Shown here one piece after another: positions 6,838 through 29,546 of a stretch of DNA of 64,000 bases. The DNA comes from Amphiscolops sp. MND2022 (lineage: Eukaryota): contig OZ076414.1 in assembly GCA_964187785.1 (NCBI GenBank), forward strand, positions 2,108,001 through 2,172,000. The letters run 5' to 3'. The notes under the pieces were generated by a model, which saw only the letters and a list, made by a program, of their open reading frames with translations, did no database searches and was not told the DNA's origin. Position numbers and translations under genes: made by a program. Position 1 is the first letter of the stretch. Every line of letters starts with the position of its first letter.

Positions 6838-7274
6838 AAAGAGAATTCTTTACACCCGTAGGGTGAGCTCCTGTGAAAAGAATTCTCTAGTGTAATTCTC
6901 TAGTGTACAGAATTAATGTGTATGACGCTGAAAATTTAATAAACGACTATCAAAATTTAAGAACCAATCCGGTGAAAGATTGAATTTTCTAAATAGACAA
7001 TCAAAATTTCAAAATCGACATCGAATTTTTAATAATCTCTCCGCAGACACTGCTCGCACGCAGCATGTAATTAACATTGAAAGTTGTAGCGCCGCTATGC
7101 AAAGCAGCATTTTCATCCTTTCTATAATCTTGAATGGCTCTTTGTGAAAAGTGGATTGGCTATTTTATTTAATTAACCAATCACAAACAAGCTGCTGCCG
7201 AGCGGTGGAAATTTTGAATGACGTTTATTAAATTATCAGCGTCATACACTGTACTAGTGTGAAGAATTCTCTTT
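6838..7274. mobile_element. MITE-like element with nested inverted repeats
   Basis: AAAGAGAATTCTT..ACAC at 6838 is inverted at 7257-7274; the inner IR GTGTATGACGCTGA..ATTTAATAAACG (~6919) is inverted at ~7222-7249. Confidence 0.45.
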
Positions 7275-7711
7275 GTGCTATTAGGCTAGATTAATAACTC
7301 TTTTTGCATTTTGTTTCCATGACATACACTCTTAGTGTAAATACTTTGTTTTTATATATTTTTCAGAACTGATGATGACATTAATTGTCGAAAACCTTTT
7401 TCCTCACTGATTGTTTTCTATTATAATGATATTGAATAAATTCATTCTTTCAGGCTTGTTTTCTGTTTGTTCCAGAGAATTTTAAACATGTTTTAAAACG
7501 TTTGTTTTGTGCAAAAATAATTTAAAACTTCGAATGGTCAACCCTGTACATATTACATGTATTTGAAAGTGTTTCACTTTGTCCTCCCTTTTTGCTATTG
7601 TATGGGGGAATAGTGAAAGAGATCCCTATGTGTTTTTAACCAAATCTACATGTATCAAGGCTGTGAATGAACGTGTAGTGTAATGGCATGTAATGTGTTG
7701 TTTGTGTTCAG

Positions 7712-7954
7712 TGGTACGTTCAGCGCGGTGTACGAGTGTGTGCACCGGCCGTCGCGGGAGAAGTTTGCGGTGAAGATAGTGGACGTACCGCGCTTCCTCA
7801 CCGTGCACTCGAAGGAGCAGCTGGCGAACGAGACCAAGATAGCGGAGCTGCTGCTCAACCACACGGACCCCTCCAAGCCCTGCAGACACCCCCACCTGGT
7901 CACGCCTCTGGACTGTCGCTCGGAGCACGCCAAGTACTACATGATCTACGAGCG
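7712..7954 (+). CDS. CASK: CASK-like exon 2 (kinase subdomains I-V: GTFSAV...FAVKIVDV...YMIYE)
   Basis: Acceptor TGTTCAG| and donor CG|GTGAGT; 243 nt, phase 2/2. FAVKIVDV matches CASK. Confidence 0.9.
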
Positions 7955-8281
7955 GTGAGTTGTTGAGTCGAGTTGAGTTGAGCACTCATGTAGGTAGTGC
8001 CATCCTTTCTTCACAATTACTACTAAACGGTGCTGCTTCAAAACAGACGGAGCCACGTTTTAAACTTCATGATTTTGTGACAAGTTTTTGAATTTTTCCC
8101 GCTTTTTGTGAGAACAATTGCATAAACAAATGTTATATTTCTGATGTTTACTTCCCTAAATCGCAAACATATGCCAACGACTTCACATGACTGCACTAGT
8201 AACATCTAACATAATCGTAATTGGGTCGAATCCCGGAGCTGCAACCGTAGTGGCACTGAAAATTTTCCAAGATGACTACCA

Positions 8282-8647
8282 TTTTTAGTCGGCGATTTTT
8301 CCTTTATAAAGAAAAAAAGCCCGACTATTACAGTGACAAGTTTTTTTCGACACACAACAATGTATGCGTAGTGGACACTATTTACAGAACTACTAAACTA
8401 CTGGACCGGCAAACGGAAACGCATCGAAGGTAGTGCAAAGGGTCCCCCTTTCATTTACTCCATTTTTAACGTAAGATACAAAACCGGACGAGACTATAGG
8501 GTTCGCTCTTTGAATTTTTTTTTGGCACTGTGCGACTTTTTTGATTTTTTGTCCCCCTTCCAGTTTTTTGGCCCTTTTACAATTTTAAAAACTTTGCGCT
8601 TTTTGAGCTTTAGATATATCGCCGACTTTAGACGTTCCCGTCTTTTT
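8282..8647 (+). mobile_element. HINE-like element copy
   Basis: Same termini; 3' hairpin AGACG-TTCC-CGTCT. Confidence 0.7.
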
Positions 8648-11600: not shown

Positions 11601-12269
11601 GCTTCTCAACCAGAGCGAGATTTTATCTGTCTTGCGTTCGGTCTTTCTTCTACAGTAAGCGAGCGATTAGTTGCTGAGAGCTTCTATTGAAATTCAATAA
11701 CTTCATCTTCCAACTAAACTATATCGTCCAAAACTACATCGCACATGTTTTGATTTTTTCTGAAAAACGCAAACCAAGTAAGTTTCATCGAAAGCATCCG
11801 CTACTGGACTGCGGATTTGTTACTGCGGACCAAATGCTAGCAGGTAGTTGGCTCTTAACTGAGTGCTACTACGGAGTAAGCAATGAAAGTAACTACTAGT
11901 GAATCAAGAAACCAATAAGTTGCAGGGATTTTTCACAAAATTGCCGCTAACTGAAATCGAGATCATGATACACACGAATCCGACGGTGGTATTCCTCACC
12001 TTCTTCAGAAATCAGAATTGGTAAACGTTCCGGTGGAAGCTCCACAAAAGACCCAATTTTTTGCGATCCCAAAAACAAAGACCGGGAGTTTCGATGGATG
12101 GTAATTTGGCCCAGTTCAAAGAGGGACCACTTAGAGATGTGGTGCATTGGTGATGCGAGTGACTTTGATTTTGACATTGAACGTTCACTTTCACTGGGAT
12201 GAGTTTAAAGTGGTATGGAATGGGATGGGATGGGATGAGTGAATGTGAATGTGAATGTGAATGTTTCAG

Positions 12270-12344
12270 ACTGCACCATCGAGACATCTGCTTCGAGATC
12301 GAGCACAGAGTGGCCCAGTTCGTGTATGGAGAACACATAGCCAG
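12270..12344 (+). CDS. CASK: CASK-like exon 3 (LHHRDICFEIEHRVAQFVYGEHIA)
   Basis: TTTCAG|...AG|GTAGGA; 75 nt, phase 2/2. Aligns with CASK [21 protein letters not shown]. Confidence 0.85.
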
Positions 12345-12459
12345 GTAGGAGAACCACACATGTAGATTACACTGATACATCTAACACCCTACCATAATAC
12401 ATGTAGTCACGTGAGTTGTTTGTTGTGACGTCACTGATGTTGTTGTGTGGTTGTTGCAG

Positions 12460-12532
12460 ACATTACATGCGGCAGATTCTGGAGGCAGTGCGCTACATGC
12501 ACCTCAAGTCGGTGGTTCATCGAGACCTCAAG
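12460..12532 (+). CDS. CASK: CASK-like exon 4 (HYMRQILEAVRYMHLKSVVHRDLK)
   Basis: TTGCAG|...AAG|GTCAGC; 73 nt. Carries the HYMRQILEA and HRD motifs. Confidence 0.9.
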
Positions 12533-12584
12533 GTCAGCAGCTTTCATTTCTATTCCATCGCATTTCATTTCGCTCGATGATAGA

Positions 12585-12965
12585 TTTTTAGTCGGCGCTT
12601 TTCTAGGGAAAAGTGCCCGACACTTACAGTGGCTAGTTTTTTTTTTCTTTTTTTTTCGTCAGACTACAATCTCACTCTGATTGGGCCACTTTTCTTACAA
12701 TCGAAACTACTAAAACTACTACCATAAGGCCAAGTCCGGTCAGCGGAAATTACTGCAAAAGGGTCCCCCCTTTCATTTTTTACTTTTTTAACGTAACTTA
12801 CAAAACCGGACGAGACTAAAGAGTCCCCCCTTTCGACTTTTTTCGGCATTGTGCGACATTTTCTGAAAGAAAAAAATTCAAAAATTTCACGTTTTTTTTC
12901 AAAAAAAGTCTTTAACGCTTTTTGAGCCTTAGATATAGCGCCGACTTTAGACGTTCCCGTCTTGT
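12585..12965 (+). mobile_element. HINE-like element copy
   Basis: Same termini; closely related to 39610-40118. Confidence 0.7.
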
Positions 12966-13509
12966 CCATTTTGTCAAACTACTTACATCTTGCAATTCCC
13001 CAATATATTCATTTCCTCCCATGTATTTTGTTTCTATGGGCAAATATCTTTCAGCCGACATTTCATCCAAGTTTTGCTATCTGCTAATTTCATACTCAAA
13101 AAATATCGTTTTATCCGCGTTCAACGACTAAAAAACAAGGTTCTTTGAGAAGATATTCAAGAAGAACAAATTGATCAGGGCTGAAAAGGCTGTTTTTGAT
13201 TTTGACTTCAAGGTTTGACATTTTCATGCAATGTTCGAATGATTTTCGAACCTTCTTAATGGTTTTCGAATGGTCGGCATGAATACCCAGAGTTCAAAGA
13301 CAAAACAATATCTCTTTTAATTCTTGTCAACCGAAAGTAGTCATCATTCTAATCTCTGAAGGCGAAGCACCACGTGTGGGGCTTGATGTAGGGGGTTAGA
13401 AATTGAATGTTGTACAAGTTTTTTTTTACTTCCCTTTCTCACTATTGACCTAAATAAAAGGAAAAGACATGTGTAAGTTGTGTGTTATTGTGTGTTGTTG
13501 TGCGTGTAG

Positions 13510-13652
13510 GTCAGCTGTATCTTGCTCGCCAAGTGTGACCAGATCAAGATCGGGGGCTTCAGGGCGGCTGTGCGACTGCCCGAGAGGGGCTACATGCAGG
13601 ACTCGTACGCCCAGTCGGGCACTGTGCACTACATGGCCCCAGAAGTCATCAG
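13510..13652 (+). CDS. CASK: CASK-like exon 5 (VSCILLAKCDQIKIGGFRAAV...GTVHYMAPEVI)
   Basis: GTGTAG|...AG|GTACCA; 143 nt. Cys at the catalytic-loop Asn position and GF in place of DF are CASK hallmarks. Confidence 0.9.
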
Positions 13653-14006
13653 GTACCACTTACCACTTGTACATGTGCATGTCTTCACTACCACCCCCTC
13701 CCCCCTCTCTTGATAAATGAATAGTTATCATGTGAAATGTAGTTGTGTCGCTACCAATTTGAGGTGTATAGCAAAACTTCCAGTTGTTGGAAAGTTGGAA
13801 AGTGTCAAGAAAATTATTACACACCTATCTATCTGCGTGAAAACGGCCGCCGACCTTCCAAGTGAAGACCAAACAACGAGAGAGAAGACGATGCCCTTTA
13901 CTTTTTCTCTTTGCTTTTTGTGACTGTTCTCTGATTGAATTGAATTGAAATGAATGATTGGATGTCTCTAGTGGCTAGTGGAGTGTGTTGTGTTGTGTTG
14001 TGTTAG

Positions 14007-14136
14007 GTGTGAGTTGTACGGGCGGCCGGTGGACATCTGGGGCTGTGGGGTCGTGCTCTACATCCTGCTGACCGGCACTCTGCCCTTCACTGGCAAGACC
14101 GCCGACGTCTTCAAACGAGTTCTCTCCAACCCAGAT
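14007..14136 (+). CDS. CASK: CASK-like exon 6 ([24 protein letters not shown])
   Basis: TGTTAG|...GAT|GTTAGT; 130 nt. Matches CASK [24 protein letters not shown]. Confidence 0.9.
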
Positions 14137-14609
14137 GTTAGTCACAGTCACTACTTCTTGTCCCACGTCACTCCAACCCCCCCCCCCCCGTCCACTGTCT
14201 CTCTCCCAGTTGAACAGAATTAGTTGTTGGAGAAGAAAAACAAAGCCAGTCTACTGTAGATAAGCTGGCTTATTTGTGCACAGTAACAGGGTAACAGTGA
14301 CTAGATATCTCTCTTACTGCCCGCTCACAAACTCTTGCTGAAACTTACTTTTTCACTAGAGTTGGCTCTGCTTTTTTTCCAACGTGTATACATATGTTCT
14401 GTTTTTTAAAAAGTAGAAATGTTAGACGCATCAGTTTGCTGTCTTTTTTGTTGAACATAAAAATGTCGAACATTTGGTACTGTTTTTTGAACATTTGTTC
14501 ATGTTGCTGGCTTTCGAGCGAAGTTTACCCTCAGAATGATTGGAGTGCAGCTGAAATTGGAGCCTTCTTGTATTTGGCAGTTGTTGAGTAATTGTTGTGT
14601 TGTGTTCAG

Positions 14610-14732
14610 TTTTCGGCGGAGAAGTGGAGCGAAGTGTCTGTGAGTGCCAAGCAGCTGTGCATGAAGATGCTGACCAGCGACCAGCACCAGCGCATCTCTG
14701 TGCACGACGCCCTCCAACACCCCTGGATCAAG
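14610..14732 (+). CDS. CASK: CASK-like exon 7 (WSEVSVSAKQLCMKML...RISVHDALQHPWIK)
   Basis: GTTCAG|...AAG|GTCAGT; 123 nt, phase 0/0. Kinase subdomain XI. Confidence 0.9.
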
Positions 14733-15169
14733 GTCAGTCCCCCCCTCCCCCCACCTCTTGCACTTTAGTTTTACTAACTCCCATCTTCTCACAACCCATT
14801 GAGACGGTGGTTCATACGTGGCAGCACCTCTTTGGCTGCTTCTTTTCCATCTTCCTCCTTTGGAATTAGCATGAAACTATCATCCTCAAATCATTTTTTT
14901 TGTATTTGAGCTCCGTTTTTAATGGAATTTGCTTCATTCAACTCAGCCTTTATACAGCAAAAGGAATTTATTTCTCATAAAAACTCCATTTTTGAGTCAC
15001 ATTAAATAGTTAATTTGGTTGAAGAAACCATGGTCGATATTTGTGGAAATACACTAAATTATTTTCATCTTTCAAATCGAAGAGGTGGAGTGAAAATGAA
15101 GAAAACAGGCGGCTGTTTCGACTGTCATGTCTAGTTTACTTTAGTGTAATATGTTGTGTTGTGTTGTAG

Positions 15170-15457
15170 TCCACCAGTGTATGTGGCGGCGGTGGGGGAG
15201 GAGGAGGGGGTTCTGGTGTGTCGAAGTCGCCCCTGAGGAGAGCGATGTCGCAGATGAGCAGGTTCAACGGGCGCAGGAAGATCCAGTCTGCCATCAACAT
15301 CGCCGCCAACTCCTCTCTCTGGGACCAGATGGCCGCTACCTTGAACGAGAAACAGCTCAAACACACCTCTCTACATGCACCCCCTCCCCCTCTGCTAGAT
15401 GCTCTGCACACCAACACCATGAACAAGGCCGTCAATGACGTCATCACCATGATACAG
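15170..15457 (+). CDS. CASK: CASK-like exon 8 (Gly-rich linker, CaM-binding helix RFNGRRKIQSAI, start of L27)
   Basis: TTGTAG|...CAG|GTCAGT; 288 nt. RFNGRRK corresponds to CASK KFNARRKLKGAV. Confidence 0.85.
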
Positions 15458-15664
15458 GTCAGTCAGTTAGTGGGTGTTAGGTCAATAATTTTTAGTCGGC
15501 GCTTGAAGTGAAACGCGACTGTTATAGTGACTTTTTTTCTATCCACACGAACTGACCAAAATAGTTCTACAAAAGTTCTACAAAATATTATTGCATCAAA
15601 ATGCACTATTTCGTCTAGCGAACTGAACCAAAAAGGTTTTTCCTGTTTTTCCGCGTAACATACC

Positions 15665-15908
15665 AGTAGTAAAGGAGGGGGGGGGGGTTTATGAACGTTT
15701 TTGGCTCCCAAGCGAAAATTTTCTAAGATAGATTTCTTATGCACGTTTTGGGCTCCCAACCGAAATTATTCTAAGATAGATTTCGTGTGCACGTTTTGGG
15801 CTCCCAACTCGAAAACTTTCAAAGTCATAAAGCTCAAAGGTCAAACTGATTCTTTATTCAAAATGTGTGCCGTATGTCAAGCATTATTTACATTGCAAAC
15901 CGATGAAG
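15665..15908 (+). repeat. Maverick left TIR (244 bp) containing ~2.6 copies of a 48-bp unit
   Basis: Reverse complement of 29302-29546, with about 5 substitutions and a 1-nt difference in G-run length (compared by eye). Confidence 0.95.
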
Positions 15909-16259
15909 CTTCTTACTGCAATAAAATTGAATAATCTTAGCATTAATGAAAATATGAAGCAGTCCAACCTTTTCTCTGCTGAACATGAGGCCTGAGGCCA
16001 TTAAGAAGTAAAAGTAAAGAGATTTTGATAAACTGACAAAGTGAAGCCATGTTCGTTCCGGAAAACTGAAAAACACAGCGACAGCAGTATCTATGTACTT
16101 AGACTCTGGAAATTCCATGGAAAACTCCCATAAAAGGCACCTATGACACCTCCTATCATGAAATTGATGCAATTGTCCAGATAACGGTTGGCGAAAACGC
16201 CATTATCAAAGTATCCTCATTACAAATCAGAAGCAAACTCAGAAGAAAAATCAGAAAAT

Positions 16260-17075
16260 ATGACTACTGTATTTCGCGAAATACCATTCAATTATTGGCT
16301 TGTTCTGTTTGCCACTGATGAAAATCGAGAATCTCAAAAAGAAGGTAATTCCGAGATGCCAGTCAGTGTTGCAGAGATGCTCGAAACACTAACAAACTCG
16401 AATGGTTGTCAGTTCATTTACAGGAAGCACAAAAACGGAGAGAATAGCGATGGTGAACTTAACGATTTCTGCCAATCCATGCCTTCAAACCACTCTCACA
16501 TACTGCTCTACATTCCCTATTTTTCTGGAGCCGAGAAGTTGATAAAACAGTCTGTTTCTCAAACGCTATCCAATGTACAAAATGCCAAAGTCAAACTACT
16601 AACAGTCTCTTACCCAGAAAACTTTATGAAAACGGAAATCTCAATGTTCCACGATGAATCGCTAATTATCAGAGGCGAAAGGATGCAGAAGCTAATCAAA
16701 GTAAAAACAACTGAGACTTTGGGTTGTAAGTTTGTATCTTCATGGGAATTTGAGAAACACAATTCCCTAGGAAACTGTCCCGAGAGTGAGAAGGCACTTT
16801 ACGTTTTCCAGAAACTTTTGCAGCTCGAGAAAAGTGACGCACCTTTCAAAGACACAATAATTTCCTACATCGATCTTCTACAACGGGGAATGGGGCGACT
16901 TTTCCTTACGGAGCACAGCCGAACGTTGGACATTGACTTGGGTGTTTCAAATGCTCAATGCACATGCTACGAGTGTCTCTATCAGCCATTACATGAAACA
17001 CAAGACGACCAAAGCACAAACTCTGAATTTTCTCTCTTCAATGAAGACACTATAATTGATACTTCATTTTTGTAA
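16260..17075 (+). CDS. Maverick ORF1, hypothetical protein (271 aa from ATG 16260)
   Basis: Long open frame inside the element with a CxCxxC motif near the C-terminus. No family recognised. Confidence 0.7.
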   Translation: MTTVFREIPFNYWLVLFATDENRESQKEGNSEMPVSVAEMLETLTNSNGCQFIYRKHKNGENSDGELNDFCQSMPSNHSHILLYIPYFSGAEKLIKQSVSQTLSNVQNAKVKLLTVSYPENFMKTEISMFHDESLIIRGERMQKLIKVKTTETLGCKFVSSWEFEKHNSLGNCPESEKALYVFQKLLQLEKSDAPFKDTIISYIDLLQRGMGRLFLTEHSRTLDIDLGVSNAQCTCYECLYQPLHETQDDQSTNSEFSLFNEDTIIDTSFL

Positions 17076-17128
17076 AAACTTTTCTAGAAATCAGTTGGAT
17101 CCAATACATTTCTTTTCACGAAGTGAAA

Positions 17129-17536
17129 ATGTTTTCAGCGCGAGAAATTTGTGAGAACTTTAACGCCGTAAATTATTTGTTCCCAAGAAACACTACAACT
17201 AAAAACGCATTTCTAGCAGTGTGCCGTTATCTGGATGAAAATGTTGATTTGAGAAAAGTCAATGCTTTAGCCCAGTCTGGAGGCAAAATAGGACCAGGAG
17301 ACAGCAAACTTGACGACTACTTTAACTTTTCAAAGATATTGAGATTGCATGCAATTTTTCATGATGCTCATGGCTACATGAGAAGTTTTGAGAACGTAGG
17401 ACCTGGTTACGTTTATACCGTTACAAAAACTCAATCCTTTCGGAATAATATGCTTCTAGGACATGTCTCCGGAATAGCTTATTGGACGTTTGTCAAACTT
17501 TTCCATCGCGAACATTTCGACGCATTCCCTTTCTGA
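17129..17536 (+). CDS. Maverick small ORF, possible phospholipase A2-like (GPG...HD) protein
   Basis: KIGPGDSKLDDYFNFSKILRLHAIFHDAHGY resembles the parvoviral PLA2 pattern GPG-x18-HD-x2-Y (here x20). The ORF is solid; the function is inferred. Confidence 0.55.
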   Translation: MFSAREICENFNAVNYLFPRNTTTKNAFLAVCRYLDENVDLRKVNALAQSGGKIGPGDSKLDDYFNFSKILRLHAIFHDAHGYMRSFENVGPGYVYTVTKTQSFRNNMLLGHVSGIAYWTFVKLFHREHFDAFPF

Positions 17537-17620
17537 ATTTTCATTTCTTACCTTGAACCTCTTTGAGTTCGGTCGCAACAGAACTAGAGGGAAAACGTTG
17601 CATTCGAAACACTAACGATT

Positions 17621-17977
17621 ATGAGCACAATCGATACGTGTCGCAGCAGTGGATATTGTAGCGAGTTGACGTTGAACGAAAACCCCCGAGATCAAGAAGA
17701 TCAACTTGACTACGCTGATTTGTCTGGTCCAAATCTTGAAAGGATAATTTTCGATAACACTGATCAAGAAAGACCTCCCTTCAGCTTCAATTGCTGTGAC
17801 TCACGCGTGGAGAGATCGTTACTCCTAGTTTTCTTTCATTATGCTATCATACTCGCAGTAATATCTTTTTGTATAATTTTTCTGTCGCTTTGTGATTCAG
17901 AGAGCAAATTTGCATCAGGCGTCTTGGCACTTTTATCAGCTTGCGTTGGCCACGTTTTACCCGGTCCAAAACGATGA
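17621..17977 (+). CDS. Maverick small membrane protein (two C-terminal TM helices)
   Basis: Hydrophobic segments LLLVFFHYAIILAVISFCIIFLSL and FASGVLALLSACVGHVLP. Its stop overlaps the ATPase ATG (ATGA). Confidence 0.7.
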   Translation: MSTIDTCRSSGYCSELTLNENPRDQEDQLDYADLSGPNLERIIFDNTDQERPPFSFNCCDSRVERSLLLVFFHYAIILAVISFCIIFLSLCDSESKFASGVLALLSACVGHVLPGPKR

Positions 17978-18675
17978 ACAAAAGAATCAGCACTAACCCG
18001 CATTGCTTCATTTCAGTCGTCGGGCCTGCTGGCTGTGGCAAGACACGCTTAATTGGAAGGATGATTTCAAACCAAGAGAAAATTTTCCGACCGTCTTTCG
18101 ATAGAATAATCTATTTTTACAAACACGATCAAGATTCCTACGAAAAACTTAGATTTGAGTGTTCGACTAAAGCTGTCGATCTTGACCTTGTTCAAGGTTT
18201 GGAGTGGAATGCTGTCGAGCGAAGCGAGGCTTTGAAGCAGAGAACTCTTGTTGTTATCGACGACTTGTATGATGAAGCTGCTCAAATTAAAGAGTTTCTA
18301 GACCTAGTTATTGCTGGACGTCACAAAAACGTACATCTAATGGTTCTGCGACATAACCTTTTTCAACAATGTAAAAACTCGAAGACGATCGACCTGAATG
18401 TCACTCAGATGATTCTGTTCAACAGCCCGCGAGATTTAGAGCAAATTGGAATCTTGGGTCGTCAACTAGGAGAGCGATCAACTTTAATGAAGGCATATAA
18501 AAGGGCTACGCAGGAACCATTCGGTCATTTGATGATTGATCTGGATGTTCGAAGCAATAGAAACTTGAGATATTGCTCTCATTGCTCTGCAGACGTACCA
18601 ACTCATTTTTATTGTGCTACAGATCAACTTTTTGTTTCACTAAACGATGAATTCACAAAATTATTATACTCTTGA
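17974..18675 (+). CDS. A32/FtsK-HerA-like DNA packaging ATPase
   Basis: Walker A GPAGCGKT, Walker B LVVIDD, then RH and HNLF motifs typical of Polinton ATPases. Confidence 0.92.
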   Translation: MNKRISTNPHCFISVVGPAGCGKTRLIGRMISNQEKIFRPSFDRIIYFYKHDQDSYEKLRFECSTKAVDLDLVQGLEWNAVERSEALKQRTLVVIDDLYDEAAQIKEFLDLVIAGRHKNVHLMVLRHNLFQQCKNSKTIDLNVTQMILFNSPRDLEQIGILGRQLGERSTLMKAYKRATQEPFGHLMIDLDVRSNRNLRYCSHCSADVPTHFYCATDQLFVSLNDEFTKLLYS

Positions 18676-18988
18676 TTTATACCAAAAGTTTTCACCTACC
18701 CTGAAAAAGTTTTTTATTCTCCACTGTTCTGATGAGTTAATTAAATTTTTTTGTGATTGCATTTTCAATGTAGTGAAGGGAAAAGTGAAACTTGAAAACA
18801 ACATTCAACGAAAAATGGCTGTGCTTTCACGCGAAAAAACGAACATTGAAACAATTTGCACCAAGAGACGCGTCTCTTTGAAGAGAAAACGTCAAGTGTT
18901 AGGCTCTGACAGAGGAATGCGTTTGCTGAAACTAGTCATTCCGTCAGTTCTGAATCATTTGAAAAATTGCCATGACAGCAAGCAGTAG
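18647..18988 (+). CDS. Small basic Maverick protein downstream of the ATPase (putative virion core protein)
   Basis: IKFFCDCIFNVVKGKV...KRKRQVL resembles the conserved basic ORF that follows Polinton ATPases. Recognised by motif only. Confidence 0.6.
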   Translation: MNSQNYYTLDLYQKFSPTLKKFFILHCSDELIKFFCDCIFNVVKGKVKLENNIQRKMAVLSREKTNIETICTKRRVSLKRKRQVLGSDRGMRLLKLVIPSVLNHLKNCHDSKQ

Positions 18989-19661
18989 CTTACGCGATCT
19001 TATTTTAATCACTCACGAGGAGTATATATCCTTGAAGCAACAAGTCAAAAAGCCAGATGCTCGCGAAAAACAAAAGCAACATATACTTTCAAATCTGGGT
19101 CAAGACACAGACTACCTTCACCGACAAGAAAAAGACATGGATGTTTCTGAACCCTCAAAACAGTCATCAGAGGACGCTCTAGTAGCCCAGTTGAATTTAA
19201 ATTCAAGGTATCCCACAGAAAAAGATATCAGCAAAAGCAGTGAGAAAGTGAATGAAGCACGCCAAAAACCGTCCGATCTAGTTTTATCGAATTTACTGGA
19301 ATCTGGCGTCACGGGTGGTAAAGTTGAGAGGTCGAGGCAAATTTTGAAAAAGATTGAAGATTGTGAGCGAACCACATTAGATGATACCAATCATACCATA
19401 ATTTTGGATCAACAGGACACTGGAATCAGTGTAGTAGAGTTTCTGTCAGCACTGCAGGTTAATACCAAACAGCTACCGAAAAAGTTTTTAACTTTGGTTG
19501 AAGTTCTCAGACTTCCTCAATTTTTACTAGCAAACACTTATGCTAGGCATACTAGCAGTCAAAATCAACATCATATTAGACTTGCTGCCGGTGCCTCGCC
19601 TTACAAGAAACTGAAGCTTGATAGCGAAACCGTACCTAATCAGTGGCTTACAAATTTCTGA
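18972..19661 (+). CDS. Maverick hypothetical protein (229 aa)
   Basis: Open frame overlapping its neighbours in the dense gene array. No recognised motif. Confidence 0.7.
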   Translation: MTASSSLRDLILITHEEYISLKQQVKKPDAREKQKQHILSNLGQDTDYLHRQEKDMDVSEPSKQSSEDALVAQLNLNSRYPTEKDISKSSEKVNEARQKPSDLVLSNLLESGVTGGKVERSRQILKKIEDCERTTLDDTNHTIILDQQDTGISVVEFLSALQVNTKQLPKKFLTLVEVLRLPQFLLANTYARHTSSQNQHHIRLAAGASPYKKLKLDSETVPNQWLTNF

Positions 19662-19663
19662 AA

Positions 19664-20828
19664 ATGGGAAACAAGAAGTGGGTTTGTGGATCATGCAAAA
19701 AAGTCTCGGCAAAGGTTCCAAGAAAACTCCATCGCTTTGGTGCCACGTTTGCGGATGGATTCACTTCAAGTGCAGCGGGCTAACAGACAGCAAAGAATAT
19801 CACGACAATTTTTTGTGTTCACATTGTCGAGAAAGCCGAGTCTTGCTCGATGATGAAAAGGACGGAGACTATGCAGCTGCGTTTCCAAAAATTCATGATC
19901 ACTACACGAATCCTGGAAATACATCAGCTTTTGGGAGTAGACGAAGCTTGATTAAAGCATCAAAGTTCCGGCCACAAGACAAGATGTAGACCGTTATTTA
20001 AACTCGAGCGAAACTTACACAAAATTCAAATTACCCCGAAAACGTTTTCCACGGTTGAAGGTTATTAGCTATAGACTGAACGAAATTTGGTCAATAGACT
20101 TGGCAGACATGCAAAAACTGGCAAACACTAATGCCGGCATCAGATACCTATTCGTCGCTGTTGACGTCCTGAGTCGTTACTTATGGGTTGAATCCATCAA
20201 GGTGAAAACGGTCCATGCGTGTAGGGAAGCTTTGAAAAAAATATTCGCCAAGAATGACAAGTCACGAAATCCCAAAATTTGTCGTGAAACACACCAACCA
20301 GAAAAAATTTGGGTCGACAAGGGTCGTGAATTCTCGGGCGAATTTGCCACTTTTTGCAGTCAACGTGGAATTGAGATTTATTCCACCAAAAGCGAGACAA
20401 AATCTGCTTTAGCCGAAAGAAACATCAGATCTTTGAAGTCGTTAATTTTCAAATACATGCACGAACATGACCAAAGTAGATATTTTGACAAACTTGATCA
20501 ATTTGTGGCAATCATTAACAACCGAGTGAACCGTATGACAAAGTTGGCACCGTCTTCGGTTTCACAAAAGGACGTCAACTATTTAGTTTCTCTCTGTCAC
20601 ACCAACGCCCAAAAGAAGCCAAAATTCAGAATTGGCCAACAAGTTCGCATTAGGCGCAAGATTGACACTTTTCATCGAGGTTACAAAATACAGTTCACGG
20701 AAGAATTGTTTAAAATTGCGGCAATACCAACCAACAACCCTCCAACTTATATTGTCAAAGACTGCGACGGCGAAATTATACAAGGAAAATTTTACGAACC
20801 TGAACTCGTGCGATTCGCTCCAAATTGA
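19664..20828 (+). CDS. PHD finger-retroviral-type (rve/DDE) integrase, ~388 aa after restoring two 1-bp homopolymer frameshifts (~19702 and ~19964)
   Basis: The N-terminus reads CGSC...CHVCGWIHFKC...CSHC, followed by YTNPGNTSAFGS, WSIDLADM (D), WVDKGREF (D) and AERNIRSLK (E), and ends GKFYEPELVRFAPN*. Confidence 0.88.
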
Positions 20829-20839
20829 CTGTGTCAACG

Positions 20840-21859
20840 ATGGACGGACTGTCAGCAAGTGTTGAGCATTCAAGTTGCAACCAAGAATTCACCATGAATC
20901 TCATTTCCAATGCTTCTATGGATACTTTTCCCGAAAACACATTGTCCAGTTTTACGACTCTTTTACCGACACCAATTCATCTTTCCGGCGAGTGGCAGGT
21001 GGCTCTACTGGAAATTGCTTGGCCCAATATTATCCAGAATGTGACTGTGGGAGAATTCACAGTATACAAACGAAACATCCAGTCGCCAGTCGAGAAGCGA
21101 CCACGCAAGCACAACCGACCCGGTGCCATTTCAATGGCGATTCCTGCAGCATTCGAGCGTCAATCTCCTGCTTCGACTCTCCCGTTTTACACAGCTCCTG
21201 TAAAGCACCGCCTAAAACCGGGATGTTATACATCGGTCGATTCAATTTTAGCATCAATCACAAAAATTGCCATGGGAGAAGAACAAATGGGAAGAAAACG
21301 AATCTCATCATCCCCTGACAATGTCTTATCACTTTTGTCATGGAAAGTTGACAATGTAACGAGAAAACTACATGTTAAATTTTGCGGAAATCACAAACAA
21401 TATGGGTTGAGAATTTTCACCGAGTCCAATGATTTGCGAAACATTTTGGGCACGAATGTAATCATTGATTGTGGTGAGTCACAAAAAGAAGCAGTGGAAG
21501 AGATCGATACAGAATCTGCATCAAACACAATTGTCAAGCATGTTGGAAAATGGCCAGTTGACTTGAATGCAGGCAGCCATACCATGTTTTTGTATTGCGA
21601 CCTCGTGCAAAACCAAACATTGGGCGATAAGCAGACGGCACTCTTGCGATCGATTCCCGTTAAAAGTCTAGCTTTGGTGCAGACGTTGGGAGAGATGAAT
21701 CACAAAAGTTTCAGCAATCTGCAGTGGAAACGCGTCATTAAATCGCATTTTCAGTCAATCAACGTCACGCTCGCCAATGAAATGGGTCAAAAAATTCCCT
21801 TCTTGAGTTGCGGTCGCACCAATGTGACTTTGGCTTTTAGACCAACACCTCGACACTGA
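20840..21859 (+). CDS. Minor capsid protein (penton)
   Basis: FTMNLISNASMDTFPENTLSSFTTLLP..IHLSGEWQVALLEI and MFLYCDLV..Q..GD....LLR.IP are typical Maverick penton motifs. Confidence 0.85.
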   Translation: MDGLSASVEHSSCNQEFTMNLISNASMDTFPENTLSSFTTLLPTPIHLSGEWQVALLEIAWPNIIQNVTVGEFTVYKRNIQSPVEKRPRKHNRPGAISMAIPAAFERQSPASTLPFYTAPVKHRLKPGCYTSVDSILASITKIAMGEEQMGRKRISSSPDNVLSLLSWKVDNVTRKLHVKFCGNHKQYGLRIFTESNDLRNILGTNVIIDCGESQKEAVEEIDTESASNTIVKHVGKWPVDLNAGSHTMFLYCDLVQNQTLGDKQTALLRSIPVKSLALVQTLGEMNHKSFSNLQWKRVIKSHFQSINVTLANEMGQKIPFLSCGRTNVTLAFRPTPRH

Positions 21860-21935
21860 CCAGACATCATTCATTCTGAAATTTGTGAAAAGTACAGTCG
21901 CTCAAATTGACCAATTTAATTTCATTGGCTCCGGA

Positions 21936-22448
21936 ATGGATGCCCATTACGATGCACAAATTAAAGCCAATACTCACACAACATTCAGTGGACCAGCCAG
22001 ACAGATGGGATCTGGGGGTGGCATTGGAGCTTTTGCTGTTCGAATGGGTCGTGTAGCCATTCCACTAGTTAGAAAGTACGTCTTACCTGTAGCAAAACAA
22101 GTCGGCAAAAACTTGATAGAAAGCGCCGTTCCGGAAATTGGACAGATTTTGTCAGGCAAGAAAAAGCCCAGCCGTAAGCTGTTGACTAATGTCGCCAAAA
22201 GGGCTGCCATTGAAACTGTAAAGACAAACTTGCCGAGCGGTGTTGCCCTTCGGCCGGGCGGCGGCGTCGGCGAGCGGAAACCCGGACCGCAGCGGTCGGC
22301 GGCGAAGGCAAAGAACGGAGTTACACGAAATGTCAAACAATCATCAGGCAATAGAAAGCGAAGTAATAGTCTCTCAAGCATTTCAAAAAAAGCGCGCGCC
22401 AAGAGAAGTCGGTCCGACATTTTGTCTGAAATTCAATTTTCCCAATAG
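21936..22448 (+). CDS. Basic putative core protein (Q.G.G motif, K/R-rich C-terminus)
   Basis: FSGPARQMGSGGGIGAFAVRMGRVAIPLVRKYVLPVAKQVGKNL is the conserved Maverick ORF between penton and MCP. Strongly basic tail. Confidence 0.7.
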   Translation: MDAHYDAQIKANTHTTFSGPARQMGSGGGIGAFAVRMGRVAIPLVRKYVLPVAKQVGKNLIESAVPEIGQILSGKKKPSRKLLTNVAKRAAIETVKTNLPSGVALRPGGGVGERKPGPQRSAAKAKNGVTRNVKQSSGNRKRSNSLSSISKKARAKRSRSDILSEIQFSQ

Positions 22449-22463
22449 ACAAAAATTCAGAGA

Positions 22464-23816
22464 ATGGCAGCATCAGTTAACAACCTCTTTGTGGGAAACT
22501 CGACGGAAATTGCAAAACCAGTGACACACAGCGCTCTAGACTATTTCGAAAAGCCTGAAGTAATGATCAATTACGAAGGGGCCTACGATCAAGAAGTATT
22601 CCCCCATGTTGGTTGTCGCGGACCACAGTTGGATTTTTTTGTTGCCGCTGAAGCAAAAAATTTGATTGACTTGAATCGCATTGTTCTCAGTGTTGAGGTG
22701 GCAATCTATCATGAGGATGGAAAGACAAAGGCAAAACCAGGTGACTTTGATGCAGTTTTTTCCAACAATACCCTCCACACGCTCTTTTCGCATGCAGAAT
22801 TGTATCTCAATGGGAAATTGATTTCTCACAGCAACAATTGTTACTTACATTCCGCATTTGTGGAAACTGAATTAACCACCGACACTGATAGTAAAGCTTC
22901 ATGGGCCAAATGTCAAGGCTACAATTATTTAGCCAAGTCCAGTGAGAAAGATCAAATGTTCAACAAGCTTGCAGCTGATTTTGCTCAACTGAAAGAATCC
23001 AAAATGCAGTTATGCGGTGCTCTCCACATTGATTTTCTGGATTGCGAAAAACTTTTACTGCCCAATGTCACCCTACATATTCGTCTTTACCGCTCGCCAA
23101 ATAACACAATCATCCATCTCAAAGGCACCGATGATGAAGCAAAAGCGCACGACGGAAAACTTTTGGCCATTGTCGAGAAGGCTTCGCTTTTTGTGAGGAA
23201 GGTTGTAGTGACTGACAGTGTTAAATTGTCGATAGAAAGAGCACTGGTGAAAAGCGATGCAATGTATCCGTACATTGAGAGTTTGAACAAAAGTTTCATT
23301 ATTCAAGCCGGGCAAAATTGTTTCATAAAGGAAAATGTTTTTGGCACCGAGCCAATTCGACGATTAACTTTGTGCATGGTTAAAAACTCCTTGTTCCGAA
23401 GTACGCCACTAAACGAGTCTCCTTTCTCATACCAAAAGTTCAACTTGCAAAGAGTGGAAATCCAAAGGGGCAATGGTGTTCCTTTAGCTGGGACACCATT
23501 GGATACTACAAACAATGTGAGATTGTACTACAATACGATTACCGCTCTTGGATTCACCCAAAAGAGTAACGGCATCAGCCTTGAGGATTATACAGACAAC
23601 CATTTTTTTCTCGTGTTCGACTTAACATCAACTGAAGAAGCTAGCAAAACTTTCACACTTTTCCCCGAGCTAACGGGATCCAGTTTGACTCTAAAGCTGT
23701 ACTTTGAGAAAGCACTCGATGATGCTATTGAACTTTTTTTGATTGGAGAGCGATTTAGTCAAGTGTTTATTGACTCAGCGCGCAACATAAAGAAAAACAG
23801 CCCGTTTGATGGATAA
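22464..23816 (+). CDS. Major capsid protein (double jelly-roll), 450 aa
   Basis: Size and position fit. Motifs LHTLFSHAELYLNGKLIS, LHIDFLDCEKLLLPNVTLHIRLYR and FFLVFDLT are characteristic of Polinton MCPs. Confidence 0.9.
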   Translation: MAASVNNLFVGNSTEIAKPVTHSALDYFEKPEVMINYEGAYDQEVFPHVGCRGPQLDFFVAAEAKNLIDLNRIVLSVEVAIYHEDGKTKAKPGDFDAVFSNNTLHTLFSHAELYLNGKLISHSNNCYLHSAFVETELTTDTDSKASWAKCQGYNYLAKSSEKDQMFNKLAADFAQLKESKMQLCGALHIDFLDCEKLLLPNVTLHIRLYRSPNNTIIHLKGTDDEAKAHDGKLLAIVEKASLFVRKVVVTDSVKLSIERALVKSDAMYPYIESLNKSFIIQAGQNCFIKENVFGTEPIRRLTLCMVKNSLFRSTPLNESPFSYQKFNLQRVEIQRGNGVPLAGTPLDTTNNVRLYYNTITALGFTQKSNGISLEDYTDNHFFLVFDLTSTEEASKTFTLFPELTGSSLTLKLYFEKALDDAIELFLIGERFSQVFIDSARNIKKNSPFDG

Positions 23817-24357
23817 TTCAACATTACAGCAGATTGTTCTACAGAATCCACATTTGAAACCAAGCTTTGCTGGTGTTTGGTCTGCAGACAATTTTCCTAA
23901 ACAGCCAGGATGGACCGAACAACGGATAATTTTGCGGAGAGGATCAAAACATTCATTGTACTATAGACCTCGTTTGGTTTGGTTCCAAATTGTCAACACA
24001 TCCCCATTGGGTGCAGTAGGAAAACATTGGCTGCTACTGGGAGCAGTCTCGACACAAAAGAAGAAAAATCTAGTTTTTGTTTGGGATTGTCTAGGTCAAC
24101 CCTTGTCACGTTACAAAATTTTCGCTCAGCGTCTGAAGCTGCTGTACGGAAAGACAGGATTCTCGACAATCAACCTGACCCTTCAAAACGCCAGCTCAAA
24201 TCTGTGCGGGCTCTATTGTCTCTTCATGATTGACTACATTGCAAGGAATCCTACAAAAGCACCTAAGGAAATTGATCCAAAACTCTTTACAGAAGTTGAA
24301 ATTATTCGTTTCATGAATGGTCAATATCATACATTGTTTAGATATACTGTAGTGTAA
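23809..24357 (+). CDS. Adenain/Ulp1-like cysteine maturation protease
   Basis: IVNT......GKHW (His), VWDCLG (Asp), LQ (Gln) and CGLYC (Cys) are all present. Confidence 0.88.
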   Translation: MDNSTLQQIVLQNPHLKPSFAGVWSADNFPKQPGWTEQRIILRRGSKHSLYYRPRLVWFQIVNTSPLGAVGKHWLLLGAVSTQKKKNLVFVWDCLGQPLSRYKIFAQRLKLLYGKTGFSTINLTLQNASSNLCGLYCLFMIDYIARNPTKAPKEIDPKLFTEVEIIRFMNGQYHTLFRYTVV

Positions 24358-24428
24358 GACATCTACTTTTTGAATTTAAACGTTATATACCCTCGCCATT
24401 TTGCATAAATAGAAGCAGTATTGAGCTA

Positions 24429-24907
24429 TTAGTTTTCATCTCCGCTACTGGAAGAATAATTCACTAGTTTAAATTCGGCACTTGAGCAAATTTTTCGTCG
24501 TTTCTGAGTTGAATAATACTCTCCATTAAATTGAGAACCATCGTCGTCGTCAGTCGACTCTTGTGCCTCATAATTAATGAATGGACAATCAAAGTGTGCA
24601 TCGTGCTGCTCATCAGCCAAGTCGTCAGATAGAGTGTCCCAATCAACAACATCTGGTAATTCTTCATCATCGTTAGAGCAAGAAGCTGATTCATTGAAGC
24701 CAGGATCGGGGGCATCTAAATTAACAATTAGGTTTATATCAATGGTGAATATAAAGTGATCGATACATTTGTTATAAAACGGTACCAACTGAAATTTGTC
24801 AAGTCAGATTTTAAAGCTTGTTTCAGAGGACTCGCGTAGCTGGAAGCACGCGATGAGCAGCTGCCATCGAGAGAGTCGGCATCAGTATCACTGTCAGAAG
24901 TGGGGAC

Positions 24908-24947
<40 letters not shown>

Positions 24948-27900
24948 ACTGATTTATCACAGTCACTAGAAGAGTCCAACTCTTCGTCAGAAGCAACATT
25001 GACTAAAACCTCACGCTCTCAATACACAAAAAAATTTTTTAAAATTAAAAAACGAAAATTACCTTGATCTGGAACTGGAATGGCATAATGACCATACGCT
25101 AGCGACGCAATCCCATCATTCAATATGTAGCGCTTGTCGTCAAAAGCACTCAATGCTATTTTCTCGACAGAATTAACAACAATTTGGTGATTGACGGACT
25201 TCAGTTGAAACATGGTCTTGGTTACTTGTTCTTTCGAGAGGAGGCACTTTTTGAAAAGATCATGATGCAACGTCTTTTTAACAGACTTGGCAACGCCCTT
25301 TGCACTCTGTTTCTTTCCGCCCACGAAGTCGATGCTGTACAACTTGGATCTGAGACAGACGACTTCTCTCAGAACTTTGCCTTGGAGCTCATCCGTCATA
25401 GTTAAAGGGACTTTTTTGTTTGTTGGGTCATATAGAAAGTGGTCTTTAGGATAATCAGACAAGTCGAGAAGGTGTTTGAAACCGGCCATGTCTTGATACA
25501 AATTTTCTGTTTCGACGCAATAAAGCAGCGAATCCGTGTCTTTGTAGGCCAATTTCAACTTAGCTGCAGAATAGCGGGGTACCATTTGCTCATAATGGAA
25601 TTTGTAAAGCGAAAGTTTGGACAAGTCAAGAATTGATGCTCCCACCGGAGTTGGTTTGTCCCATAGGACACTGCTCGATTTGAACGATACGCTGACCAGA
25701 TTTTCATTGACGATATTGAATGATTTGAAAGATGGTTTTTGAATCATTGATTCAGCTTGTTGAACGTTTCCCACAAAAGCAATTTTACTTCGCTTGCGCA
25801 GATTCTCCATTGTTTTTCCGAAACAAGCGTTGCTCATTAGCTTGAAAAAGTTTTTTTCAAAGTCATTTTCAGCCTGCTTACGCATGATGGTATTTTTTTC
25901 AATGTAGACACCCAACCATGTACTTTGATTAAACTCGCACACACGATGCAGTTTTTCCACAACCAATCCATGCTTTACATAAAATTTCAAATTTTCGTAG
26001 TGACAGACGTAGTTTTTCTTGTCAAAGAGGGTTTCAATCAGTTTAGGGACTTTGTTCGGCTTCAAGCCAAAAGATTTAGCGTAAGCAGACAGCCATTGAG
26101 GCATAATTTGACGTTTCTCGGGTGCCAAAGGCAAGCCATTGTGAGTATCATGAAGTTCTTTTGGATACAGGAGGTCAACTTCGACAAAGAAACCGACATC
26201 TGCATCAGCGGGAGTATCGAGAATTTGTTGCAATGTTATCGCGGTGTTCCATTTATAATTGCCTATGGGCATCATTTTTTGCATTGTGCCCGCATATAGA
26301 GACGTGACATCAAAGAACGCTCCAAACGTTGTAGCTTTGCTAGGGTTGTGATGAGGTAGCAAATCGTTGTTGGCACAGAAATGTCGAATCTCGCCGACAC
26401 CATTAACTCCACCCTAATTCCACGTTCGAAAAACAAAAGTTTGTCAATTTCATCCAATAAGCCCAACTTTGCATCCGTTGAGATCAGCATCGCGTCCCAA
26501 CTGAGGTTCGGAGCTGAGTAGAAATGAGCCGGGTCAAGCTTGTACACCTTGAGACAAACCCTTCTAAATTTTTCAAAAATGTCAGCTAACAGAAAAACAT
26601 CCGTTTGCAAGTAGAGATCGTGGTAATCTCCCAGATTCTTACAAGCAAAAGCTTCATAGATAGTAACAGCTTCATTGTATTGGTCAGGAGTTATATCCAC
26701 TGTCCCAGTGAGGGTATTTTTCCAATCAATTCCGAGGGGTGGCAACGGTTCATCAAACTTTTGGAAGCTGTCCAGAAAGCTGTATGGAAAAAAACCTTTT
26801 TTGGTCAGTTTTTCGAACACCTGATCAGGTACACCAGAAAAATGTTGACGAAGGAGTGCAAAATCGTCAGCCTTCAATGTCTTAGCCAATGATTCCAAAC
26901 TTTGTGACATGAATTGCAAGCTGTCAAGGAATCGCAATGAATGAAACAGCCTGACAATTCTGTTCTTTTTGTCAGTGTAGCTTCCCACCGGCATAGATAA
27001 GTTAATTGAAGTAAAAGTCTCATCAGTTCTGGCGATTGCTGAAAGTTTTTCACCCTTCTCCAATTTCAAATTTTTCAACATATGATGCGAATCGTAGCGC
27101 GAAAAATTGTGGAAGAATACGGGCAGAAAATTTGTTGTTCTTGCTTGCAGGTTACACTTGGAGTGGGCCACGCCAAAGACTTTTCCAGACAAATGGCAAT
27201 GGTGAATCACCCGTGTGGAAACTTCAGCTTCTTTACCGCAGATGCAACACTCGGCAAAATGCACATTTAGGATCCTTTCGCGCTCAGCTTTTGGGATTTT
27301 GAGCCAACGGAACTTTTGCTTTTCTGAGTAACACCAGACAGACCATTGTCGTAAAGTGTTCAGGAGCTTCGATATAGAGTTTCGACCACGATAAAAGGAC
27401 TCTTTCACAACTGCTCCAGCTAAAATTACCAATTATAGTTGAAATATGGTTGATTAATTGTTGGAAAATATAAATGAAAACACTAACCCTTGTTATCGAC
27501 CAGAACAGCACCGTAACTAGCAGGAAACTGTCGCTCAATCTCCCGCGTTTTCGTCGAGAGGCTGTGGGTTTCAGTTTGACAAACATTCAATGCCTCCAAA
27601 TCAGCGTACACAACAAATGGACACTGCTGTGTTTTCTGCCAATTCACAAACTGGAGTAATCGGTCGTCTTTCGGCATTAGGATTTCCAAAGGATCGTTGG
27701 ATTCACAAAAAGTGGAATGCCTGGCCATATTTTGTTTCAAAACTGGTTGGAAACAATTCCTGCAGAATCGACTTTTCGGACCAGTTGACCTTTTCCGCGG
27801 AGAGCGAGAAAGATGATGAATAAGGTTTGAAAAGTTTTTGATGAGACAATAGTGACTCCGTTTCCCTTCAACCAATCGCAAAAGATTAACTTTTCTTCTG

Positions 27901-28913
27901 TGACTTTTGTTTTTGCTACTGTAGATATTGATCAATTTTCTCCCATCTAACTGATAGACATTGATTGAGCATCGGTTTCTAACTTCAAAGGATCGAATAC
28001 CAGAGAGTGGCATGGGCATTTGTTTTGCATTAAAATGTAGCTTATGCACATTTTCCAAATGTGTTTTGGGTCGAAAGGCACGACCGACGAAAGAGAACAG
28101 CGCCGCGGCAACACAATACAGGAAGCAGAAATTGTCCTTTTTATTGACTATATTCAAAAGGCTTCTTTTCAATTTCTGCAGAATAGGGGGCGTTTTGATG
28201 TAGGAACCAGCAACCACAGTAGCACATTTTGCAGTCTTGATTTCAAATCTCTCCTTTTTTTCCACAACCCAGCCTGAGCCACCAGTAGCAAACACGTTGA
28301 GTTGGCTCATCAGTTGATCCAAGTGCTCCAAGAACTCCTCTTCAGTAAATTCCAGCGATAGCTTGGCCATGCTTGAATTGAAAAAAGCTTCGGTCGAATC
28401 GTCAACTAAAGGTTTGCGTAAACGCACGCTCATTGAAAACCCCATCTTCATGTTGCCTTCAACCTCCAAAATCGAGTTGACAAATCCCATAATTTTGTCT
28501 TTCAATGAAATCAAGCAATTGAAAGGTTCAATAAACAACGACTCCCCAAGTTTCAATCGATGAATTTGGAAATGTGATTTCAAAGCTTTTGTTGAGAATG
28601 CGATAGTTGAAACATTTTCTGGAAGAGAGCGTTTGACGTTTCCAGTGGAATGCAACTCCTTCTCATGCGTAGAAAGAGCTGTAGAGCAACCATAAAAACT
28701 GGGACATGTAGAACATCGGAATTGGTTTGTCATTTTATGGACGGAGCGTAAATGCCTCAACAAATTCTTTGATTGGGTGAAACCTGTAGGACAGTGTCCA
28801 CAGTGGAATATTTTGGTGCACTGTTCAATATTTCCATGTTTTGTTTTCATATGATTGCTTAAAGCTCGCTGGGAAGCCAAAATCTTCCCACAATGTTGGC
28901 ATGAAAAATTCAT
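24429..28913 (-). CDS. Protein-primed DNA polymerase B (pPolB), proposed spliced gene. Exons 28913-27488, 27419-25063 (1-bp frameshift ~26413), 25002-24790 and 24715-24429; ~1,427 aa
   Basis: Three C2H2 fingers, ExoI YADLE, Endo VII-like HHCHLSG..AH..CNL, ExoII HNFSRYD, ExoIII YLQTDVFLL, and polymerase motifs FDVTSLY, KLMSNACFGKT and YKDTDS. The GT-AG introns are all phase 1. The polymerase call is firm; the last two exons are less certain. Confidence 0.85.
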
Positions 28914-29301
28914 TCCAGAGTGAAACCTTTCAAATATTCACGGTGCCATTCCATATCAAGTTGAAATTTCTCAAGATAAAAAAGAGCAGAAAACGTACTA
29001 GGAAATTCAACTACTTTTTTGAAGGAGAATGGCACCGTGAAGGAAAATTTGAGACAGTTTAGCTTTTCAATTTTCCGGAACAGTAAGAAATCGTAATTAT
29101 GGGCTTTTAAGAGCGAAGATTTTCATTCACTTGTGAGCTCTGATATAACATTCGATTTCTTTCAAAGTTTGTCCAAACGGTACTTTTCTATTCTATCTCT
29201 GTGAGAATGTCACGAAAGGACAGTCAGCAGTCATCTGTATCAATAGGATTCGAAATCTTTCTAAGTTAACGTTTCTCTTGGTATAGAAACCTTTAAGAAA
29301 C

Positions 29302-29546
29302 CTTCATCGCTTTGCAATGTAAACAAAGCTTGACATATGGCACACATTTTGAATAAAGAATCAGTTTGACCTTTGAGCTTTATGACTTTGAAAGTTTTCG
29401 AGTTGGGAGCCCAAAACGTGCACAAGAAATCTATCTTAGAATAATTTCGGTTGGGAGCCCAAAACGTGCATAAGAAATCTATCTTAGAAAATTTTCGCTT
29501 GGGAGCCAAAAACGTTCATAAACCCCCCCCCCCCTCCTTTACTACT
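29302..29546 (-). repeat. Maverick right TIR (245 bp)
   Basis: Reverse complement of the left TIR; ends ...CCTCCTTTACTACT. Confidence 0.95.

Follow-up and report, generated by a model that had tools for sequence, protein, structure and literature searches.

The gene for the protein-primed DNA polymerase (family B; pPolB) of a Polinton/Maverick element in Amphiscolops sp. MND2022 is broken by a 68-nt stretch, and the question raised by this locus is whether the break reflects decay, a boundary between two genes, or an intron. The element lies in a 64,000-nt window (GenBank assembly GCA_964187785.1, contig OZ076414.1, positions 2,108,001 to 2,172,000), which is numbered here from its first letter. 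A first-pass annotation of the window had read the stretch as a spliceosomal intron. DNA-level evidence indicates that it is almost certainly a GT-AG spliceosomal intron, designated intron 1, and it is highly likely to be the first of three such introns in a gene that would give a four-exon mRNA. The coordinates are collected in Table 1.

Intron 1 in the window copy and across families

Re-reading of the sequence reproduced the coordinates, length, GTTAGT donor, TTTTAG acceptor and phase that had been reported for intron 1. Its G+C content is 22%, whereas the 150-nt flanks have 47% and 45%; it splits a codon after the first base, and stops occur in all three frames across the region. The site is 40 codons past the Exo I motif and before Exo II, away from the border between the terminal-protein (TP) and vOTU regions. 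The GTTAGT donor had also been described for exons 1 and 6 of the neighboring host CASK-like gene. It was confirmed at 14137, after the sixth recognizable exon, and at 2777, after a plausible first exon that was judged by eye only. YTRAY-like branch-point words are present in some families, with no fixed position.

The 1.07-Gb assembly was searched with a 401-nt DNA query containing the intron and its flanks (41 matches) and with an 80-aa protein query (150 scored matches among 664 candidates). Of the 99 loci examined, 39 came from the DNA query; the other 60 were picked from the protein matches to span families, which are labeled A–K in this work; A–F carry intron 1, while G, H, J, and K are without it. 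The matches of the DNA query that were examined are Polinton pPolB loci, and no search was made with the intron alone. An insert is present at exactly this codon in 78 of the 99 loci, a plain 3-nt codon stands there in 19, and 2 loci have no anchor pair. Among 73 tightly anchored inserts, 68 have GT...AG ends; their lengths range from 45 to 88 nt, with residues modulo 3 of 18/23/32. A further 26 loci of the same genome, several of them duplicates, have a 3-nt gap (17), a 2-nt gap (1) or an insert (8). In a check that the first-pass annotation had proposed, intron 1 was found to be common to the near-identical copies of the window family (12/12, dispersed over many chromosomes), and it extends across families A–F, whose proteins are 54–71% identical to that of the window at the anchors. 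The donors in these six families are GTTAGT, GTGAGT, GTAAGT, and GTTTGT, and the acceptors are TTCAG or TTTAG. A family B locus (L072, G000:C3:45718100-45722700) has an intron 1 of 63 nt that is stop-free through poly-T slippage. It was considered as an intronless copy with a 1,288-aa frame, and this was rejected because the read-through frame holds the stop-free intron.

Between families the interiors of intron 1 are 43–59% identical, compared with shuffled means of 45–52%, and the D–F pair alone is above the shuffled maximum, whereas codon structure is retained in the 150-nt flanks. Within family A the interiors are 70–78% identical and the flanks 88–95%. On both sides of the intron, the ratio of nonsynonymous to synonymous differences (pN/pS) is ~0.10–0.22 within subfamilies, and pS of 0.84–0.94 (saturated) compares with pN of 0.18–0.29 between families. 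The flanking exons are under purifying selection. Among 120 database proteins, both anchors are present in 101, none of which has more than 13 residues between them at the site, and the nine closest continuous proteins have exactly one residue there. Uninterrupted homologs are therefore colinear with the joined halves, and the interval supplies no coding sequence that they require. Scans of the Joint Genome Institute (JGI) metagenomes and of IMG/VR found distant relatives alone (30–55%; 10 and 1 loci, respectively), none anchoring at the intron 1 site.

A frameshift or a neutral insertion in a dead copy, later duplicated, would be in keeping with a genome in which most copies are degraded and with the private frameshifts of the window copy. 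Against this, the insert keeps the same codon and phase and its GT/AG ends in six families with unrelated interiors, both flanks are under purifying selection, and dispersed near-identical copies on many chromosomes carry it. Because the site is conserved, the interiors saturated, the flanks selected and the homologs colinear, the break cannot be explained by decay, by a simple frameshift or by the loss of coding sequence, and the probability left to a dead-copy origin is negligible. The original statement that the break is not a frameshift is thus borne out. The window copy itself is decayed because it has its own frameshift near 26410, at a place where sibling copies with the same motif read in frame; intron 1 is a family trait. 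Removal of intron 1 was said to join the two halves of pPolB in frame, and this holds for the junction, where one-codon colinearity is found, and not for the whole polymerase of the window copy.

Exon 1 matches Pfam zf-C2H2, and its predicted model, with a predicted local distance difference test score (pLDDT) of 82.7, matches the N-termini of adintovirus/MELD polymerases (E 4e-22), together with weak matches to Y-family polymerases (E about 0.01). In exon 2, Pfam DNA_pol_B_2 (PF03175) is above the cut-off in both frames and Endonuclease_7 is also found. PF03175 and the N-terminal fold thus identify the protein-primed family B polymerase that is a hallmark of Polintons. The nearest named homologs are from the acoel Convolutriloba macropyga (RefSeq XP_075240282.1 and XP_075260000.1; 53–54% over the exonuclease part), and a sequence search of the PDB, made with a natural open reading frame (ORF) that lacks intron 1, gave nothing significant. 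A 5' leader exon, sought by eye, is not needed since most families have an ATG just ahead of the first Zn finger. The TP and vOTU labels of exon 1 are presumed from motifs and from a published domain layout. This layout, TP-vOTU-EXO-PALM, is described in the available part of bioRxiv 2024.03.18.585575, and the model of exon 1 fits it. Exon 1 has its best fold match in a stand-alone 560-aa protein of Drosophila-associated adintovirus 2 (BFVD A0A7D4VFN9); the gene for this protein may be split or may contain an intron missed in annotation.

This stand-alone protein would also suit an arrangement in which, as in adenoviruses, a TP/vOTU gene is followed by a separate polymerase gene and the 68 nt are a spacer. 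The upstream frame of family A does stop at the donor, and split TP genes occur in some Polintons according to the portion of bioRxiv 2024.03.18.585575 that was available. However, the TP/vOTU border is not where the break falls; it is within the exonuclease region. In the window family, the downstream edge has no nearby start codon, and the stop reached by read-through varies (478–508 aa). Moreover, both ends conform to splice consensus, and in sister families the two halves are joined through exactly one codon. Two separate genes are therefore very improbable. The two-gene split, a simple frameshift, and post-insertion decay were all rejected. Intron 1 instead has the characteristics of a major (U2-type) spliceosomal intron, with GT/YAG ends of host-like consensus, colinearity on removal, and a fixed position with a drifting interior.

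Two further putative introns and the acidic tail

Two further phase-1 GT-AG stretches, overlooked in the first-pass annotation, lie 3' of the polymerase motifs and are very likely real introns (introns 2 and 3). In copies of family A, intron 2 measures 59–63 nt and exon 3 192–216 nt. Exon 3 is always a multiple of three and stop-free in the 11 family A copies with both ends found (20 fetched), and a CCTAAT branch-like motif is kept near the intron 3 acceptor. Of 11 whole elements, 10 have an intron 2/3 pair, among them those of families G, H, J, and K, which are without intron 1. In a frame-blind tally of 106 loci, 59 had both anchors; in 57 of these, and likewise in 11/11 whole elements, an AG precedes the PDPG codon by exactly 5 nt, and read-through from YGH to PDPG was found in none (0/59).

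The tail is conserved across families, and the same series of tail motifs is continuous with the polymerase in 10 database proteins, including XP_075240282.1 and XP_075260000.1. The YGH–PDPG distance predicted here is 84 aa, compared with 86–91 aa in the eight continuous proteins with a YGH anchor. Exon 4 has 133 matches in its own genome; its pairwise BLAST match to the database protein P0010 is weak (E 0.058), Pfam gave no match to the tail, and a region search returned the query alone. Position, phase, and motif order make the case for introns 2 and 3, which is slightly weaker than that for intron 1. The 1,270-aa "complete" ORFs of this genome likely lack the last two exons. Eleven other Polinton genes have no intron-sized gap in their aligned parts.

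On this basis the element would be transcribed in the host nucleus by RNA polymerase II (Pol II), and the host major spliceosome would remove three short AT-rich introns to yield one four-exon mRNA; both the splicing and the Pol II transcription of pPolB are what we infer from the gene structure. The product would have ~1,430 codons by exon arithmetic and comprise Zn fingers, a TP-like region, a vOTU-like region, exonuclease, polymerase, and an acidic tail. The introns would most likely be constitutive and near neutral, carried along by DNA-to-DNA replication; because replication is DNA-templated, they would be inherited rather than stripped.

The introns might also act as a switch. Retention of intron 1 would give a short Zn-finger/TP/vOTU protein devoid of polymerase and retention of intron 2 a polymerase without the acidic tail, so that replication would be tuned in a P-element-like manner. 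In almost all copies, retention leads to an early stop, some donors are non-optimal (e.g., GTTTGT and GTTGGT), and pPolB is the only one of the 12 genes compared that has introns. On the other hand, the four families without intron 1 are multi-copy with long open frames, and neither the retention stop (478–508 aa) nor any interior motif is conserved. The 63-nt stop-free intron in one family B copy looks like drift. Beyond intron position, nothing supports a regulatory role, and a switch is improbable compared with constitutive introns.

Proposed gain and loss of intron 1 and apparent exchange of the polymerase module

Families A–F form one clade in the exon 1 and polymerase-part trees (100/98–99), and family H and the P0010/P0013 group of database proteins lie outside the intron 1 clade, so intron 1 appears to have been gained inside it. 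A first tree by a quick method had left the intron 1 families unresolved (64). Three database proteins are split at the intron 1 site: P0211 and P0214 end there, and P0007 begins there. They are sister to the intron-1-less families G/J/K (100/99). The approximately unbiased (AU) test rejects all split forms as one group (p 0.0008; p 0.027 on exon 2). A search of the Amphiscolops genome for the P0007 family gave nothing closer than 59%. Taken together, a single gain of intron 1 in the clade followed by precise loss in G/J/K is moderately favored by the trees. Introns 2 and 3 are older because all ten families here have them. The intron gain proposed at first is upheld relative to outgroup polymerases, and it was incomplete in that there are three introns and G/J/K likely lost the first.

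The capsid tree needs three changes of the intron 1 label, whereas the polymerase tree needs one. In family K (L146–L147), the capsid and integrase are 82–84% identical to those of the window and the polymerase 45–67%; an intron-1-less polymerase is thus paired with a capsid 84% identical to that of the window. Polymerase modules appear to have been swapped between co-resident Polinton families, and in view of this swapping and the conflict with the capsid tree, intron 1 travels with the polymerase module and not with the capsid. Intron loss through reverse transcripts is usually 3'-biased. Such a bias is at odds with G/J/K, which retain both 3' introns, and together with the co-existence and module swapping of the families it would suit two gains of intron 1, or its loss from G/J/K through recombination in which an H-like allele took part. 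It is less parsimonious for two gains to have hit an identical codon in the same phase, and we consider these alternatives unlikely, though far from negligible, beside a single gain with precise loss.

Several observations weigh against the account of three spliced introns with one gain of the first. The excision of the introns is a DNA-level prediction. Five of the 73 anchored inserts do not have GT or AG where expected, which fits decayed copies without proving it, and the window copy has private frameshifts in pPolB and integrase. For introns 2 and 3, the multiples of three in exon 3 are partly due to AGC-repeat slippage, which is possible in non-coding DNA too; a degraded family F copy has no intron 2/3 path, with the last acceptor present; and the wrong-frame control is weak (right frame best in 9/10 elements and tied in 1/10). 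Intron 2 of the window copy is a multiple of three with a stop, and its retention could yield a tailless polymerase. A poly(A) hexamer following exon 4 was missing from 8 of 11 elements. As for the history, the exonuclease-part tree does not resolve the intron 1 families as a clade (33/80), the group used in the AU test was named only after the earlier trees had been inspected, and the split in P0211, P0214, and P0007 is known from protein ends alone.

The element, its surroundings, and known systems

The element is a bona fide Polinton/Maverick, and the hallmarks tested were found in it (Table 1). Its ends are AGTAGT/ACTACT, and the flanks CATACC and CATAGC match at 5/6 positions, resembling a target site duplication (TSD). 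The Polinton gene set of pPolB, rve integrase, packaging ATPase, and cysteine protease is present with Pfam scores above the cut-off. Intronless core genes, a trait described in the literature and not a strict criterion, are not seen here, with three introns predicted in pPolB. The integrase is a single ORF of ~394 aa in sibling copies and is split by a frameshift in the window copy. The model of the capsid candidate (pLDDT 48.7, low confidence) has 99 matches at E<=0.001, many of them major capsid proteins of nucleocytoplasmic large DNA viruses (NCLDV), virophages, and adomaviruses; Pfam and PHROG searches with this ORF gave no match. ORF 20840-21859 is a minor capsid (penton) candidate by position, and family searches gave no match to it. 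Six conserved ORFs on the plus strand at 16260-17977, 18647-19661, and 21936-22448 (271, 135, 118, 113, 229, and 170 aa) are syntenic in 10/10 families. Elsewhere in the genome, tandem Polinton polymerase fragments with ~2-kb and ~6-kb spacing are found at G000:C8:62503159-62509284 and C12:58078858-58090657.

Table 1 Features of the Polinton/Maverick copy in the window.
Feature	Position	Strand	Remarks
Whole Polinton/Maverick copy	15665..29546	.	13,882 bp; AGTAGT termini
Left terminal inverted repeat (TIR)	15665..15915	.	235 nt at 97%; 253 nt at 96.8%
Packaging ATPase (A32-like)	17974..18675	+	Pfam Pox_A32; without intron-sized gap
Cys-rich N-terminus and rve integrase	19693..20828	+	Pfam rve
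Double jelly-roll (DJR) major capsid protein candidate	22464..23816	+	fold match of predicted model
Adenain/Ulp1-like cysteine protease	23809..24357	+	Pfam Peptidase_C48 and C5
pPolB exon 4 (predicted), acidic tail	24429..24715	-	PDPG / VDWD / PFIxxEAxE motifs, basic patch, LVxYSxS; stop-to-stop frame without ATG
Intron 3 (predicted)	24716..24789	-	74 nt, GTTGGT...TTTAG, phase 1
pPolB exon 3 (predicted), Ser/Asp-rich linker	24790..25002	-	213 nt
Intron 2 (predicted)	25003..25062	-	60 nt, GTAATT...TTTTAG, phase 1, 23% GC
pPolB exon 2 (predicted)	25063..27419	-	endonuclease-VII-like Zn module, Exo II/III, polymerase motifs; copy-specific frameshift near 26410
Intron 1 (predicted)	27420..27487	-	68 nt, GTTAGT...TTTTAG, phase 1; exonuclease region, Exo I–Exo II interval
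pPolB exon 1 (predicted)	27488..28913	-	ATG at 28913; C2H2 fingers, TP-like and vOTU-like region, Exo I motif at 27608
Right TIR	29294..29546	.	TIR ~250 nt, ~97%

The Polinton adjoins host CASK-like kinase exons (2697-15459, plus strand), and the insertion is ~200 nt past the last recognized exon. The best PDB matches of the host gene are CASK, and a motif scan of the window found none of the downstream CASK domains L27, PDZ, SH3, and GuK. The exons are GC-rich in coding sequence, and their acceptor tracts are (GT)-rich. A GIY-YIG ORF fragment in a host intron (3232-3642, minus strand; Pfam E 4e-6) is possibly a remnant of a Penelope-like or other mobile element. A dispersed repeat of ~50 nt with the core GATATGGCGCCGACTT occurs in both orientations at 4885, 29967, 31184, 31908, 36624, 40069, 42829, 46032, 56863, 58759, and 59043, and probably represents the ends of a host miniature inverted-repeat transposable element (MITE) or transposon family.

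In the literature searched there was no description of an animal Polinton in which spliceosomal introns are fixed in pPolB; supplements and Repbase records were outside this search and could already annotate such exons. None is mentioned in the available parts of PMC10748475, PMC11296320, PMC6431247, PMC8363768, and PMC8502044, nor in those of bioRxiv 2024.01.15.575659, 2025.04.19.649669, 2026.07.28.741278, 2022.05.02.489867, and 2022.07.28.501842. As far as the accessible text goes, the vertebrate and nematode Mavericks (PMC8097293; bioRxiv 2022.07.12.499685) share with this element the TIRs, TSD-like flanks, pPolB, integrase, ATPase, protease, DJR capsid, and two opposed modules, and differ from it in that their core genes are reported to be intronless, whereas three pPolB introns are predicted here. 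For the nematode Maverick, the text of bioRxiv 2022.07.12.499685 at hand places introns in cargo genes. Intact vertebrate Mavericks have no introns in the available part of PMC8097293, but "intact" is defined there by intronless ORFs, so spliced elements could have been classed as fossils. Two other papers state, in the parts available, that introns were ignored. Polinton surveys usually grade intact against fossil copies by unbroken ORFs, and lineages with a spliced polymerase would score as dead or truncated.

The introners of dinoflagellate eupolintoviruses are likewise spliceosomal-type introns inside Polinton-like elements; in the part of PMC12166617 available they are mobile repeats, ~25% of them in coding regions, and the authors infer selection against them. 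In contrast, the introns described here would be old, position-fixed, and sequence-saturated between families, with selected exons, and an introner origin is untraceable. Cryptophyte and other Polinton-like viruses (PLVs) also contain introns, which the accessible text of PMC12220804 describes as self-splicing group I introns of 309–376 bp, located in a short gene that lies upstream of the capsid gene; these are neither GT-AG introns nor in the polymerase.

Inherited spliceosomal introns would tie the elements to nuclear Pol II transcription and splicing-compatible hosts, which bears on virion transfer between species. With ten co-resident families that differ in one intron, intron gain and loss can be tested directly in an element that replicates as DNA. 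The interest is tempered by the fact that splicing is ordinary in nuclear DNA viruses and transposons. The E2B polymerase/pTP mRNAs of adenovirus and intron-containing DDE transposases, such as those of CACTA and P elements, all depend on splicing by the host, and introns have been gained and lost across families. In the Convolutriloba proteins XP_075240282.1 and XP_075260000.1, compared at the protein level, the same acidic tail motifs are found in one protein with the polymerase. It is doubtful that a spliced four-exon replicase with an acidic tail, with intron gain and then precise loss, would serve as a replication switch and a step toward an adenovirus-like split. Splicing in adenovirus joins short leader exons, whereas the introns predicted here interrupt a Polinton pPolB within its exonuclease region and at its C-terminus.

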